Shown here: one piece after another, positions 53,545 through 58,710 of the stretch
How positions within the stretch are numbered: the stretch's first letter is position 1
How the letters are laid out: every line of letters starts with the position of its first letter
Assembly (NCBI RefSeq): GCF_030013595.1
Contig: NZ_CP122768.1
DNA from: Escherichia coli
GTDB lineage: Bacteria > Pseudomonadota > Gammaproteobacteria > Enterobacterales > Enterobacteriaceae
Reading direction: 5' to 3' (one strand)
DNA: 64,000 nucleotides
The notes under the pieces: generated by a model
Seen by the model: only the letters and a program-made list of their open reading frames with translations
Told to the model about the DNA's origin: nothing
The model's database searches: none
Made by a program: the position numbers and the translations under genes

Positions 53545-53580
53545 GCCAACCTTAAGAACTTAAGGTTGGCTTAATTTTGC
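53545..53580 (+). terminator. Rho-independent terminator after adiC
   Basis: gccaaccttaag ... cttaaggttggc hairpin followed by TTAATTTTGC. Confidence 0.7.
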
Positions 53581-53621
53581 TTTGCGAGCATATGCGCACT
53601 TTGTTCGATGGAAACACCGTG

Positions 53622-55930: not shown

Positions 55931-55939
55931 TTGAATCTG

Positions 55940-57031
55940 ATGCGTTTTCTGCGCCGACCAATATCGCTGCGCCAACGGCTGATATTGACCATTGGGGCCA
56001 TTTTGTTGGTGTTTGAGCTGATCAGCGTCTTCTGGCTATGGCATGAAAGTACCGAGCAGATTCAGCTGTTTGAGCAGGCGCTACGCGACAATCGCAACAA
56101 CGATCGCCACATCATGCGTGAGATCCGCGAGGCGGTCGCCAGCCTGATCGTCCCCGGCGTCTTTATGGTCAGCCTGACGCTATTTATCTGCTATCAGGCG
56201 GTACGCCGCATCACCCGCCCGCTGGCGGAGCTGCAAAAAGAGCTGGAAGCGCGCACCGCCGACAACTTAACGCCCATTGCCATTCACAGCGCCACCCTCG
56301 AAATCGAAGCGGTGGTTTCGGCGTTAAACGATCTGGTCAGTCGCCTGACCAACACGCTGGATAACGAAAGGTTGTTTACCGCTGACGTCGCGCACGAACT
56401 GCGAACGCCACTGGCGGGGGGGCGTTTGCATCTGGAACTGCTGGCGAAAACGCATCACATTGATGTAGCACCGTTAGTGGCACGGCTTGATCAGATGATG
56501 GAGAGCGTCTCCCAGCTGCTGCAACTGGCGCGTGCCGGACAGTCATTTTCTTCCGGTAATTATCAACATGTAAAACTGCTGGAAGATGTCATTCTCCCCT
56601 CGTATGACGAACTCAGTACCATGCTCGACCAGCGACAGCAAACCCTGCTATTGCCAGAGAGCGCCGCCGACATCACCGTTCAGGGTGATGCAACCCTGCT
56701 GCGGATGTTATTGCGAAACCTGGTAGAAAACGCCCATCGTTACAGCCCGCAAGGCAGCAACATTATGATTAAGCTGCAAGAAGATGGCGGAGCGGTCATG
56801 GCTGTTGAAGATGAAGGACCGGGTATTGATGAGAGTAAATGCGGGGAGTTGAGTAAAGCATTTGTACGTATGGACAGCCGTTATGGCGGGATTGGTCTGG
56901 GGTTAAGTATTGTCAGCCGCATTACACAGTTGCATCACGGGCAGTTTTTCCTGCAAAACCAGCAAGAGACTTCCGGCACGCGGGCCTGGGTACGGCTGAA
57001 GAAAGATCAGTACGTGGCAAACCAGATATAA
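55940..57031 (+). CDS. basS: Sensor histidine kinase BasS/PmrB
   Basis: 363 aa from ATG at 55940 (MRFLRRPISL...); HAMP and H-box (ADVAHELRTPL) and HATPase domains. Confidence 0.93.
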   Translation: MRFLRRPISLRQRLILTIGAILLVFELISVFWLWHESTEQIQLFEQALRDNRNNDRHIMREIREAVASLIVPGVFMVSLTLFICYQAVRRITRPLAELQKELEARTADNLTPIAIHSATLEIEAVVSALNDLVSRLTNTLDNERLFTADVAHELRTPLAGGRLHLELLAKTHHIDVAPLVARLDQMMESVSQLLQLARAGQSFSSGNYQHVKLLEDVILPSYDELSTMLDQRQQTLLLPESAADITVQGDATLLRMLLRNLVENAHRYSPQGSNIMIKLQEDGGAVMAVEDEGPGIDESKCGELSKAFVRMDSRYGGIGLGLSIVSRITQLHHGQFFLQNQQETSGTRAWVRLKKDQYVANQI

Positions 57032-57096
57032 AGAAAGCTGCTGACCACCAGCACGCTGAACACGGTAGTTAAACTTTCATAAACACGGTTTTTCAT
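57007..57096 (-). CDS. pmrR: 29-aa membrane peptide PmrR, convergent with and overlapping the basS 3' end
   Basis: Translates to MKNRVYESLTTVFSVLVVSSFLYIWFATY; below the ORF-track size cutoff; overlaps basS by 25 nt. Confidence 0.8.
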   Translation of the reverse strand: MKNRVYESLTTVFSVLVVSSFLYIWFATY

Positions 57097-57165
57097 TGCA
57101 CTCTCCTCCGTTAACCTGGAGGAGAGTATGCGCGTCAGAGATTAAGTGAACCTTAAGACTTCAAT

Positions 57166-57194
57166 TGGCCTGATAAGACAGCGTCACATCAGGC
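57166..57194. repeat. REP-like palindromic element between pmrR and proP
   Basis: ggcctgataagacagcgtcacatcaggcc palindrome. Confidence 0.6.
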
Positions 57195-57207
57195 CATCCG
57201 TTTCAGC

Positions 57208-58710
57208 TTATTCATCAATTCGCGGATGTTGCTGCACCAGGCGGGTACGTTTCGCCTGCAAATCGGCAATCTCGTGGTCAATATCATCGATTTTCTGCTC
57301 GATATTATCGTAATGCTCGACGAGAATTTCCTTCGCTTCCTGTATATCTGACGCCGCCGGTGTCGCACCTTTCAACGGACGATTTGCCGTCTCTTTCATG
57401 GTTACGCCGGTGATTAAACCAACCACCGCCACTACCATCAGGTAATAGGCAGGCATCATCAGATTCTGCGAGCTTTCGACCAGCCAGGCCGCCAGTGTTG
57501 GCGTCAGACCGGCAACCAGCACCGAAATATTAAATGCCGCCGCCAGCGCGCTGTATCGGATATGCGTCGGGAACATCGCTGGCAAGGTAGAAGCCATAAC
57601 GCCCGTAAAGCAGTTAAGGATCACCGCCAGCATCAGTAACCCGGCAAAAATCAGGCCGATGACGTTACTGTTAATCAGAATAAACGCCGGGATCGCCAAC
57701 ACAAACAGTGCAACACTACCAAGAAGCACAAACGGACGACGGCCAAAACGGTCACTCAGCAAGCCCATCACCGGTTGAACAAACAGCATACCGATCATAA
57801 TAGCGATAATAATCAGCACCCCGTGGTCTTCGGAGTAATGCAGGTTATGCGACAAATAACTCGGCATATAGGTCAGCAACATGTAGTAAGTCACGTTGGT
57901 AGCAATTACCAGACCAATACATGTCAACAGGCTGCGCCAGTGTTTGGTGGCAATCTCTTTAAACGAGACTTTCGGGCCATCCTGCAAACCTTCGCGGTCG
58001 CCCTGTTCCAGTTTATCAACATGCTGCTGGAACGCCGGAGTCTCTTCCAGCGCATGGCGCAGGTAAAGCCCGATAATCCCTAACGGCAGAGCAATAAAGA
58101 ACGGAATACGCCAGCCCCAGTCGAGGAAGTTCGCTTCGCCGACAATGGTCGAAATTAACACCACCACGCCCGCACCCAGCACAAACCCGGCAATAGAACC
58201 GAAGTCCAGCCAGCTGCCCATAAATCCACGTTTACGGTCAGGGGAGTATTCCGCAACAAATATCGACGCCCCGGTATATTCACCGCCGACCGAGAAACCT
58301 TGTGCCATCTTACAGATCAACAGCAGAATCGGTGCCCAAATACCAATCGTGTCGTAGGACGGTATTAAGCCAATACAGAAGGTACTGATCGACATAATCA
58401 CAATAGTGATAGCGAGGATCTTCTGGCGACCATATTTATCGCCCAACATACCAAAGAAGAGTCCACCAAGCGGTCGAATCAGAAAGGGAACGGAGAAAGT
58501 GGCAAGTGCAGCAACCATCTGCACGCTGGGGTCAGCCCCCGGGAAAAAAACTTTACCTAATGCGTAAGCAACAAAACCATAAACACCAAAATCAAACCAT
58601 TCCATTGCATTACCCAGTGATGCTGCGGTAATGGCTTTACGCAGTTTACCGTCATCAATAATGGTGACATCACGAAGGGTAATTGGTTTTACTTTTTTCC
58701 TTTTCAGCAT
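57208..58710 (-). CDS. proP: Proline/glycine betaine:H+ symporter (osmosensing MFS transporter)
   Basis: 500 aa from MLKRKKVKPITL...; MFS with C-terminal coiled-coil tail; ORF track start 58743 is an upstream extension. Confidence 0.95.
   Translation of the reverse strand: MLKRKKVKPITLRDVTIIDDGKLRKAITAASLGNAMEWFDFGVYGFVAYALGKVFFPGADPSVQMVAALATFSVPFLIRPLGGLFFGMLGDKYGRQKILAITIVIMSISTFCIGLIPSYDTIGIWAPILLLICKMAQGFSVGGEYTGASIFVAEYSPDRKRGFMGSWLDFGSIAGFVLGAGVVVLISTIVGEANFLDWGWRIPFFIALPLGIIGLYLRHALEETPAFQQHVDKLEQGDREGLQDGPKVSFKEIATKHWRSLLTCIGLVIATNVTYYMLLTYMPSYLSHNLHYSEDHGVLIIIAIMIGMLFVQPVMGLLSDRFGRRPFVLLGSVALFVLAIPAFILINSNVIGLIFAGLLMLAVILNCFTGVMASTLPAMFPTHIRYSALAAAFNISVLVAGLTPTLAAWLVESSQNLMMPAYYLMVVAVVGLITGVTMKETANRPLKGATPAASDIQEAKEILVEHYDNIEQKIDDIDHEIADLQAKRTRLVQQHPRIDE

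Follow-up and report, generated by a model that had tools for sequence, protein, structure and literature searches.

A covarying hairpin joining the promoter and ribosome-binding site of pmrR: a candidate insulator for a known small gene convergent with basS

At the 3′ end of the sensor-kinase gene basS (pmrB), a short reading frame on the opposite strand runs into the kinase coding sequence. The locus raises the question of whether this frame is a gene and, if so, what sets its expression between its upstream neighbor proP and the convergent basS. It was analyzed within a 64,000-nt stretch of an Escherichia coli genome (contig NZ_CP122768.1, assembly GCF_030013595.1), hereafter the window, to which all positions refer unless stated otherwise. 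The two coding features are:

57007..57096, minus strand: pmrR coding sequence, 29 aa plus stop, from sequence and translation, NCBIfam match and RefSeq annotation.
55931..57031, plus strand: basS/pmrB sensor kinase, with a TTG start at 55931 and the K-12-equivalent ATG at 55940.

The original prediction placed a 29-aa minus-strand ORF at 57007..57096 and named it pmrR, a gene known from K-12 that overlaps the end of basS. The frame is indeed there, opening with ATG and translating as MKNRVYESLTTVFSVLVVSSFLYIWFATY before the stop codon, and the proposed alignment to annotated pmrR bears out the name: the peptide is identical to K-12 b4703, and RefSeq annotates 'LpxT activity modulator PmrR' at the same position. 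This annotation is found at this position in 5,408 of 5,426 E. coli genomes. The locus thus corresponds to PmrR of Salmonella enterica and E. coli (NF033224; UniProt PMRR_ECOLI), sharing with K-12 the peptide, a location flanked by proP and basS, the 25-nt convergent overlap and a PmrA-box promoter. The pmrR locus itself carries no difference from K-12; around it, single bases are changed at 57159, close to the PmrA box on its upstream side, and at 56961, within basS. PmrB differs from its K-12 counterpart by H2R, S138N, V161G, D283G and R341Q, the V161G call (position 56421) being provisional. As had also been stated, the gene is missing from the supplied ORF track, the cause being the track's length cut-off. 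The finding as submitted recovers a known gene and is no discovery; it is a reminder that ORFs of fewer than 30 aa need a separate track.

Two readings would deny the frame its status as a protein-coding gene. Short ORFs of 20–40 aa are common, with 89 ORFs of 20 aa or more in or across the surrounding 6 kb, so that the size of a 29-aa frame is by itself within chance. What raises pmrR above chance is its Shine-Dalgarno (SD) sequence, a perfect PmrA box, a full-length NCBIfam match and purifying selection. PmrR matches the equivalog model NF033224 at 74.2 bits (cut-off 30), with residues 1–29 aligned to profile positions 1–29, while a Pfam search with PmrR returned no meaningful match. The peptide consists of a short polar N-terminus, one hydrophobic helix with a core of about 20 residues as read from the sequence, and an aromatic C-terminus, IWFATY. 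The original prediction would have been undermined by a frame that is not conserved or by a lack of translation signal; the frame is kept in relatives with a pN/pS of 0.18–0.33 in four clades (0.21 in Escherichia plus C. amalonaticus), indicating purifying selection, and Ribo-RET start-site profiling shows translation (PMC11429745). Given this conservation, the family match and the literature evidence, a chance ORF without a product is already refuted, its probability being practically negligible. The other reading takes the locus for a non-coding sRNA in which the ORF is incidental, since Rfam RF02052, 'Enterobacterial sRNA STnc630', matches 57000..57165 on the minus strand with 181.4 bits against a gathering threshold of 55, over model positions 1–166 of 166. 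This model spans the PmrA box, SD, ATG and stop of pmrR, and therefore describes a promoter and an mRNA, whereas Rfam files it under type 'Gene; sRNA'. The region contains a complete pmrR ORF with its SD, the frame is under purifying selection, and the product has been demonstrated by Ribo-RET, by a His-tagged membrane peptide and by the loss of complementation upon an ATG-to-TAA change (PMC11429745). The published start-codon mutant has already gone most of the way to refuting the sRNA reading, which we regard as very improbable. RF02052 recognizes only the Escherichia/C. amalonaticus type and not Klebsiella-type loci; a literature search on STnc630 found no paper. We are highly confident in identifying the ORF as pmrR, a genuine gene that has been characterized before, and in its published function.

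The primary paper on PmrR is reportedly that of Kato et al. 2012, to which later papers attribute the biochemical LpxT evidence in Salmonella. According to the literature, phosphorylated PmrA (BasR) binds the box at 57141–57157 and activates pmrR transcription, and PmrR is an inner-membrane peptide that inhibits LpxT, the enzyme adding a second phosphate at lipid A position 1. This inhibition frees position 1 for EptA-dependent phosphoethanolamine, raising polymyxin resistance and lowering bile-salt resistance; PmrR thus sets position 1 between diphosphate (bile resistance) and phosphoethanolamine (polymyxin resistance). In E. coli, deletion of the PmrA box abolishes PmrR function genetically, and epistasis with lpxT has been shown (PMC8129183). 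PmrR is translated and membrane-associated, as seen from the Ribo-RET start signal and from PmrR-6xHis in the membrane fraction, and complementation by pmrR depends on its start codon (PMC11429745). The same study found growth phenotypes that are partly LpxT-independent, so PmrR function may exceed LpxT inhibition, and reported no significant induction of a pmrR-proximal transcriptional reporter in low Mg2+ (PMC11429745). Translation, membrane location, PmrA-box promoter, phenotypes and the 25-nt overlap are all already published. PmrR resembles MgrB and MgtS of the PhoQ/PmrB network in having fewer than 50 aa and one transmembrane helix, in belonging to the same stress network and in binding a larger membrane protein (PMC11429745); the targets differ, being PhoQ and MgtA for MgrB and MgtS and LpxT for PmrR, and the likeness implies no sequence relationship.

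The region upstream of the start codon contains the following elements, in order from proP towards pmrR:

57167..57195, minus strand: REP-like palindrome GGCCTGAT..ATCAGGCC, a putative REP element, between the proP stop (57208–57210) and the PmrA box.
57141..57157, minus strand: PmrA (BasR) box CTTAAGGTTCACTTAAT, a perfect match.
57125..57130, minus strand: −10-like hexamer CATACT, a putative promoter element that follows the PmrA box at exactly 10 nt.
57099..57128, minus strand: conserved hairpin, with a 5′ arm (57118–57128) overlapping the −10, a loop (57110–57117) and a 3′ arm (57099–57109) that holds the SD.
57117..57118 (MG1655 4332094–4332095), minus strand: predicted PmrA-dependent transcription start, from −10 geometry.
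57103..57109, minus strand: SD sequence GGAGGAG, 6 nt before the ATG.
57092..57100, minus strand: mapped 3′ end of RNAs that come in from proP, coinciding with the pmrR start codon and the base of the hairpin.

The PmrA box lies 44 nt upstream of the pmrR ATG. The 64-kb window holds two matches to the box against 0.08 expected, the other being the eptA promoter, and among related loci a box was found 58–63 nt before the ATG in 54 of 54. A hexamer with A2 and T6 follows the box at exactly 10 nt in 50 of 51 distinct promoters, and this spacing predicts that transcription starts at the end of the 5′ arm of the hairpin, on its last base or on the first base of the loop. The predicted +1 leaves, on average, 91% of the 5′-arm nucleotides on its upstream side, and at −1/+1 a pyrimidine is usually followed by a purine. 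The placement of the start inside the hairpin is a prediction from promoter geometry. The eptA promoter has the same arrangement (box, 10 nt, then GAGCAT) with no obvious SD-pairing inverted repeat by eye, and an SD-pairing hairpin does not look general to PmrA promoters.

The hairpin is supported by both folding and comparative evidence. In the minimum-energy fold its stem, at −19.4 kcal/mol, comprises ten Watson-Crick pairs and one G·U pair covering GGAGGAGAGT. Across 50 distinct sequences, the covariation score was 0.263, compared with 0.142 in shuffled alignments, of which none in 500 reached 0.263, and with 0.05–0.12 when the pairing partners were slid. The eight core pairs amount to 333 Watson-Crick, 33 G·U, 8 A·C and 26 mismatched cells. 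RNAalifold, run independently, also finds the core helix, and the same helix is present in the consensus of Rfam RF02052. Among 55 aligned loci, the GAGG core of the SD shows no or almost no variation. Folding energies average −14.2 kcal/mol in the pmrR sense versus −13.2 kcal/mol on the opposite strand; together with the G·U count of 33 against 8 A·C, these energies lean towards action of the hairpin on the pmrR-sense strand, although not decisively, since the G·U excess could merely reflect constraint on the SD arm. Pseudocitrobacter and Pantoea sp. A4 have weak versions of the hairpin, at −5 to −9 kcal/mol. The SD region has a predicted unpaired fraction of 0.14 in long transcripts versus 0.44 in short ones, and in 53 of 54 loci it is more open when the transcript is short; in the short E. 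coli transcript it is predicted to be only 24% unpaired. In the literature on pmrR we found no description of a role for this hairpin.

According to published maps of RNA 3′ ends, transcripts from upstream end at the base of this hairpin. A Term-seq 3′ end lies at MG1655 4332116 (+), equivalent to window position 57096 (PMC7815308, Suppl. files 1 and 3), and a TRS peak spans 4332112–4332120 with its dominant position at 4332117, equivalent to 57095 (PMC10687069, Suppl. Data 2). The window is identical to K-12 at the mapped ends, and in both datasets the RNA ends 3–4 nt past the stem. The published maps list no other 3′ end between proP and pmrR, including at the REP-like palindrome. There is no U-tract past the stem on either strand, and among the Rho-dependent regions listed by Adams et al. 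(Suppl. file 2) none lies beyond the hairpin, which is only an absence of evidence. PMC10687069 mentions that the upstream gene terminates within pmrR; a terminator-like site within the ORF (57053..57039, minus strand) was considered as the terminator of the upstream gene and rejected, because the mapped 3′ ends coincide with the start codon. We attribute this site to coincidence in the T-rich codons of the transmembrane segment, the chance expectation being 0.7 sites.

A co-directional gene lies upstream of pmrR in every locus examined, proP or, in other genera, uvrB. We propose that the hairpin insulates pmrR from this neighbor, using the gene's own −10/discriminator as its 5′ arm and the SD as its 3′ arm. 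Read-in transcripts from proP (or uvrB) would contain both arms and would either end at the hairpin foot or, on read-through, carry a closed ribosome-binding site. PmrA-driven transcripts, in contrast, would begin where the 5′ arm ends, be unable to form the hairpin and be translated from a leader of about 21 nt. We consider the chances of this model about even. If correct, it would offer a simple account of how PmrR production depends on active PmrA despite an expressed neighbor directly upstream, and it may also explain why colistin resistance was found to hinge on the 'pmrB 3′-downstream region'.

The same logic is known from the transposase genes of IS10 and IS50, in which an inverted repeat hides the ribosome-binding site in RNA started upstream, while the element's own start inside the repeat yields an open mRNA. 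This fold-back inhibition reportedly protects the elements from read-through transcripts, as Davis, Simons and Kleckner are said to have described in 1985 and Schulz and Reznikoff in 1991. In pmrR, too, the repeat pairs with the ribosome-binding site, as seen from the pairing and covariation. Unlike in IS10 and IS50, the 5′ arm is the −10/discriminator of an activator-dependent promoter, the start is a predicted one, and the structure coincides with the mapped 3′ end of an upstream gene. The likeness would be a resemblance of mechanism and carries no family membership.

The same observations might be accounted for if the hairpin were only a 3′-end determinant of the upstream gene, and possibly of basS too, acting as a terminator or exonuclease block, with its overlap of the SD and −10 reflecting compaction. 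Such a role fits the agreement of two independent maps on an RNA end 3–4 nt past the stem, the lack of any other listed end between proP and pmrR, and a stem that folds on both strands. It also fits the large effects on pmrB mRNA seen between constructs in which the hairpin is truncated (+86) and those in which it is complete (+103 or +126) (Xu et al., PMC8004244). The absence of a U-tract on both strands and of a listed Rho-dependent region argues against it, as does the fact that the hairpin stays with pmrR whether proP or uvrB lies upstream. In K. pneumoniae, a canonical uvrB terminator precedes the PmrA box, which would make insulation by the hairpin largely redundant there; the hairpin nevertheless persists with this terminator immediately upstream, which is also unexpected for a structure that serves solely to form the 3′ end of the upstream gene. 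Moreover, the 3′ arm is always the SD, and the G·U pairs favor the pmrR-sense strand. A role confined to 3′-end formation seems somewhat unlikely to us.

A further possibility, raised by the original prediction, is that the overlap with basS couples pmrR expression to read-through or interference from the kinase transcript. Here the overlapping RNA extends well beyond the coding sequences:

56907..57006, minus strand: pmrR 3′ UTR, antisense throughout to the end of the basS coding sequence, with the primary 3′ terminus at 56907.

This terminus corresponds to 4332305, giving a 3′ UTR of 101 nt (PMC10687069, Suppl. Data 4). No terminator-like site was detected in the region, which folds at −34.9 kcal/mol (z = −2.0). 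Under an excludon or antisense scheme, collisions between RNA polymerases or duplex cleavage by RNase III would let pmrR transcription feed back on basS mRNA, or the reverse. The pmrR mRNA does continue into basS for about 100 nt beyond its stop codon, so that a duplex of at least 125 nt could form, and pmrR–basS is listed among the convergent excludons of E. coli MG1655 and in the E. coli core 'excludome', present in at least 50% of 58 RNA-seq samples (PMC12288877). In about 15 genera, represented by 54 loci, pmrR and pmrB retain their tight tail-to-tail order, and the length of DNA 3′ of pmrB strongly alters the level of plasmid pmrB mRNA (PMC8004244). The 25 nt of shared coding sequence (57007..57031, convergent), on the other hand, encode the non-conserved PmrB tail ..DQYVANQI, and the coding overlap varies from −8 to +57 nt in 54 related loci. 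Past the conserved RAWVxF motif this tail measures 5–26 aa, while the pmrR stop always lies 20–40 nt past the last conserved PmrB motif. Judged from these sequences, the 25-nt coding overlap looks incidental, a probable by-product of a basS stop codon whose position shifts in the non-conserved tail. PmrA boxes drive both genes, which are thus expected to be induced together rather than exclusively (PMC8129183), the opposite of the mutual exclusion that defines an excludon. Constructs that include the pmrR promoter (+126) yielded about 315-fold more pmrB mRNA than +86 constructs, with equal half-life (Xu et al., PMC8004244), so the one published deletion series gives no sign of antagonism. The pair therefore shares with convergent excludons the overlapping transcripts and a 3′ UTR inside the partner gene, and differs in its common activator, its expected co-induction and the lack of antagonism in the relevant data. 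The claim of coupling is partly supported, in that the transcripts do overlap; coupling itself is unproven and weakened by the present evidence, and we consider it unlikely.

Related loci were gathered by anchoring on PmrB, with exact E. coli PmrB peptides as the scan patterns; this yielded 80 loci, among which Salmonella does not appear because the patterns were exact. PmrR-like peptides in Klebsiella, Kluyvera, Kosakonia and their relatives are homologous to PmrR and unnamed in public records; that of K. pneumoniae is a 30-aa ORF, MQKINFREYLAVATALVIIVAFFHQWVLTF. The insulation model extends to these relatives as a joint proposal: a promoter-embedded anti-SD hairpin, covarying across Enterobacteriaceae, would stop or silence upstream RNAs so that only PmrA-initiated RNAs make the peptide, and the PmrR family would include unannotated members in Klebsiella, Raoultella, Kluyvera, Kosakonia, Enterobacter and Phytobacter. 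We advance this combined claim tentatively, at slightly less than an even chance. If it is true, K. pneumoniae has a PmrA-controlled LpxT modulator that is absent from current models of colistin resistance.

The minus strand of the window encodes a 29-aa peptide at 57007..57096 (ATG AAA AAC ... TAC TGA, translated as MKNRVYESLTTVFSVLVVSSFLYIWFATY); this ATG ORF appears in the window ORF list and lies tail to tail with basS/pmrB (55931..57031, plus strand), with which it shares 57007..57031, i.e., 25 nt. A 29-codon ORF is unremarkable by itself: 89 ORFs of 20 aa or more overlap the 6 kb around it. The 401-base pmrR region was detected by megablast in 5,408 of 5,426 complete E. coli genomes, and among the matches listed the feature is annotated as 'pmrR: LpxT activity modulator PmrR', with proP and pmrB on its sides. 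Alignment to the annotated K-12 MG1655 gene (b4703, 4332116..4332205) revealed an identical peptide and likewise a 25-nt overlap with basS (4332181..4333272). The DNA from 57158 to 56962 is also identical to K-12, so K-12 experimental coordinates carry over directly to the window. NCBIfam NF033224 (PmrR, equivalog) matches the full-length peptide with 74.2 bits (curated cut-off, 30); a Pfam search of the peptide gave no meaningful match. Four of the 5,410 places matching the 401-base query in E. coli genomes are on records labelled as plasmids, and in one genome (strain PI7, H12) the match covers just the proP–pmrR part of the query, which suggests a disrupted or rearranged pmrB.

The eptA-pmrAB-pmrR locus has been drawn with an overlapping pmrR and its PmrA-box promoter, and deletion of this PmrA box in a PmrA-constitutive strain yields polymyxin sensitivity and deoxycholate resistance in an lpxT-dependent manner (PMC8129183). 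Ribo-RET reads at the PmrR start site increase five-fold in low Mg2+, PmrR-6xHis is found in the membrane fraction, deletion of pmrR causes a growth defect whose complementation needs an intact start codon, overexpression is toxic, and the phenotype is in part LpxT-independent (PMC11429745). The peptide frame is conserved, with pN/pS of 0.18-0.33 in four clades. The original prediction, which described the minus-strand peptide, its antisense overlap with the basS 3' end and its presence in K-12, is correct, and neither of the results that would have spoken against it, a missing translation signal or an unconserved frame, was obtained. The literature already covers the gene, the fact that it is translated and its overlap with basS.

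Between proP and pmrR, the window sequence contains the following elements:

57210-57208, minus strand, proP stop codon
57195-57167, minus strand, palindrome between the proP stop and the PmrA box, which we take to be REP-like
57157-57141, minus strand, PmrA box CTTAAGGTTCACTTAAT
between 57141 and 57130, minus strand, 10-nt spacer from the PmrA box to CATACT
57130-57125, minus strand, CATACT, a -10-like hexamer
57127-57118 and 57109-57100, minus strand, perfect inverted repeat ACTCTCCTCC / GGAGGAGAGT with an 8-nt loop between the arms
57096, minus strand, pmrR ATG, preceded by GCA

The PmrA-box pattern has two matches in 64 kb versus 0.08 expected, the second being upstream of eptA. The 3' arm of the inverted repeat is the Shine-Dalgarno sequence of pmrR, and the stem dominates the predicted fold (-19.4 kcal/mol). 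At the eptA PmrA box (53559-53575, plus strand), a hexamer whose second base is A and sixth base is T (A2/T6), GAGCAT (53586-53591), follows at the same 10-nt spacing; inspection of this promoter by eye alone found no obvious repeat pairing with the Shine-Dalgarno sequence. Within the pmrR ORF, a small TGCTG..CAGCA stem with a T-rich tract (57053-57039, minus strand), which is also in the Rfam consensus, was rejected as a 3'-end site, as none of the mapped 3' ends (Term-seq, TRS) coincides with it; it probably arises incidentally from the T-rich codons of the transmembrane segment.

To compare this arrangement across genera, PmrB was scanned in one genome per species, giving 80 loci. A 28-33-codon ORF convergent to pmrB was found in 54 of them, in Escherichia, Klebsiella, Raoultella, Kluyvera, Kosakonia, Enterobacter, Phytobacter, Trabulsiella, Yokenella, Pseudocitrobacter and others, as well as in Citrobacter amalonaticus and one Pantoea sp. 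The related loci keep the hairpin and a PmrA box that is close to perfect and lies 58-63 nt upstream of the ATG. They also keep an A2/T6 hexamer, which follows the box at a distance of exactly 10 nt in all but one of 51 distinct promoters (50 of 51). The coding overlap amounts to 25 nt in Escherichia, 4 in C. amalonaticus, 22 in Klebsiella, 57 in Pseudocitrobacter and 42 in some Kosakonia, and is 0 or negative (lowest -8) in many other genera. Alignment of PmrB C-termini places the end of the conserved domain at ..RAWVxF and the pmrR stop always 20-40 nt past that W codon; the overlap varies in length because the PmrB tail beyond this motif consists of 5-26 residues of unrelated sequence. Although real, the overlap is probably incidental, following from stop-codon drift in a dispensable PmrB tail, and is probably not maintained. 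At six PmrB-anchored loci from other genomes (L009, L012, L013, L032, L035 and L081), a convergent uvrB 3' end directly follows pmrB with no PmrR-like ORF between them, and these look like natural variants of the module that lack pmrR; loci lacking the ORF belong to Pseudescherichia vulneris, Escherichia sp. ESNIH1, Superficieibacter and some metagenome-assembled genomes.

It had also been proposed that the overlap could couple pmrR expression to the basS transcript through read-through or interference. The transcripts do overlap, as the primary 3' terminus of pmrR lies at 4332305 (window 56907), 100 nt beyond the stop, and the pmrR-basS pair is named in the E. coli 'excludome'. A regulatory role of the coding overlap, however, fits poorly with its genus-dependent length, with the co-activation of both genes by PmrA and with plasmid data, in which antagonism is not shown; a functional antisense effect between pmrR and basS is thus unlikely.

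In the plasmid deletion series of Xu et al. downstream of pmrB, '+N' endpoints count from the pmrB stop, and the 176-bp intergenic distance to proP (57032-57207) is their +176. Mapped onto the window, assuming that the BL21 sequence equals the window sequence here, +86 (57117) retains the ORF, Shine-Dalgarno sequence and loop and lacks the 5' arm and the -10, +103 (57134) adds the -10 and the full hairpin, and +126 (57157) ends exactly at the first base of the PmrA box. The effect on colistin MIC and lipid A modification was nil at +86, intermediate at +103 and full at +126, and the construct with only the ORF had more pmrB mRNA than any other, yet gave no resistance (PMC8004244). Resistance therefore appears to follow the pmrR promoter elements and not pmrB mRNA, although chromosomal pmrR in the host keeps this short of proof.

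The hairpin was assessed by aligning 55 sequences, of which 50 are distinct. Its 13-pair helix gave a covariation score of 0.263, compared with 0.142 for column shuffles (0 of 500 reached the observed value) and 0.05-0.12 for slid partners. Both-sided changes occur at seven pairs; pair 15-36 is AU in 17 sequences, CG in 15, GC in 6 and GU in 6. The core helix was independently recovered by RNAalifold, and by this comparative evidence the hairpin is a real structure. Its eight core pairs comprise 333 Watson-Crick, 33 G.U, 8 A.C and 26 other cells, and the G.U excess favours action in pmrR-sense RNA. This strand of action is probable and not certain, because constraint on the Shine-Dalgarno arm could partly explain this excess and both strands fold with nearly equal energy (-14.2 kcal/mol for pmrR-sense versus -13.2 for the opposite strand).

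Part of the conserved -10 hexamer lies within the 5' arm of the hairpin. Transcription is predicted to start ~7 nt downstream of the -10, at the last 5'-arm base or the first loop base (57118-57117). Averaged over the loci, 91% of the nucleotides in the 5' arm precede this predicted +1, and the -1/+1 bases are usually a pyrimidine, then a purine. The PmrA-initiated mRNA would have a leader of ~21 nt without the anti-Shine-Dalgarno arm, and RNAs from the upstream gene would contain the two arms together. The Shine-Dalgarno window is predicted to be unpaired with a probability of 0.14 in long RNAs versus 0.44 in short ones, the short form being higher in 53 of 54 loci; in E. coli it rises from 0.07 to just 0.24. 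We consider the chances that the promoter operates inside the hairpin in this way, from the predicted start, to be about even. The harm caused by PmrR expressed without stress offers a plausible selective reason for such control. Fold-back inhibition in IS10 and IS50 follows the same logic, which is proposed here for a predicted start site. The hairpin and promoter architecture represents a modest lead and not a discovery.

In K-12, Term-seq maps a 3' end at MG1655 4332116 (+), classed as 'internal, pmrR' (PMC7815308 Suppl. files 1 and 3), and the printed flanking sequence identifies it as the A of the pmrR ATG, 3 nt beyond the last stem pair. A TRS peak covers 4332112-4332120, with 4332117 as the dominant position (PMC10687069 Suppl. 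Data 2), and according to the authors SEnd-seq shows that the upstream gene terminates at this peak (PMC10687069). Published K-12 lists contain no other 3' ends or Rho-dependent regions between proP and pmrR, which indicates that proP RNAs cross the PmrA box and the entire hairpin and end at the hairpin foot. A U-tract after the stem is absent on both strands, so the hairpin is not a canonical intrinsic terminator; the 3' end at its foot may result from trimming back to the stem. The co-directional gene upstream of pmrR in nearly all loci checked is proP (Escherichia, C. amalonaticus) or uvrB (most others), and the hairpin stays with pmrR behind either; in K. pneumoniae it persists even though uvrB has a canonical terminator directly adjoining the PmrA box. 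In K. pneumoniae ATCC 13883 (L021:3703-3721, minus strand), the PmrA box immediately after the uvrB intrinsic terminator hairpin AAGGCCGCGTTGCGGCCTT supplies its T-rich tail, so that terminator and activator site are fused.

The Rfam family RF02052 'STnc630', catalogued as an Enterobacterial sRNA, has a 181-bit match at 57000..57165 (minus strand). Its consensus includes the PmrA box, hairpin, Shine-Dalgarno sequence, ATG and stop codon of pmrR; since it spans promoter elements and the ORF, it models the pmrR promoter plus coding mRNA, and an sRNA gene was rejected. Among 20 loci tested, it recognises only those of Escherichia and C. amalonaticus. NCBIfam PmrR stays below its cut-off on the 30-aa peptides of Klebsiella, Kluyvera, Kosakonia, Enterobacter, Phytobacter and Yokenella, and in public records such PmrR-like peptides are 'hypothetical' or unnamed. 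Profile-profile comparison of both groups gave 96.6% probability (E = 5e-10, 28 of 29 columns) with the invariant F and W aligned, and the groups share position and promoter architecture; by this comparison, the peptides of Klebsiella and relatives are homologous to PmrR. No description of a Klebsiella PmrR was found in the literature searched, and the wider unannotated family is likewise a modest lead, not a discovery. At loci L010-L062 (e.g., L021:3550-3642 in K. pneumoniae ATCC 13883), the 30-aa ORFs are convergent to pmrB and are accompanied by a PmrA box and this hairpin; the loci belong to Klebsiella, Raoultella, Kluyvera, Kosakonia, Enterobacter, Phytobacter and others.

The window sequence encodes BasS V161G (codon 161, 56420-56422), a GTG to GGG change giving a run of seven G. 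This variant has a PointFinder listing as colistin-resistance-associated, but the same paper also describes it as a Velvet assembly artefact. A 33-mer with the V161G allele occurs in 0 of 5,426 complete E. coli genomes, and the K-12 allele in 4,963. Should V161G prove genuine and activating, constitutive expression of pmrR and eptA would follow in this strain. Further differences from K-12 are H2R, S138N, D283G and R341Q in BasS (codons 2, 138, 283 and 341) and S29G in BasR (codon 29).
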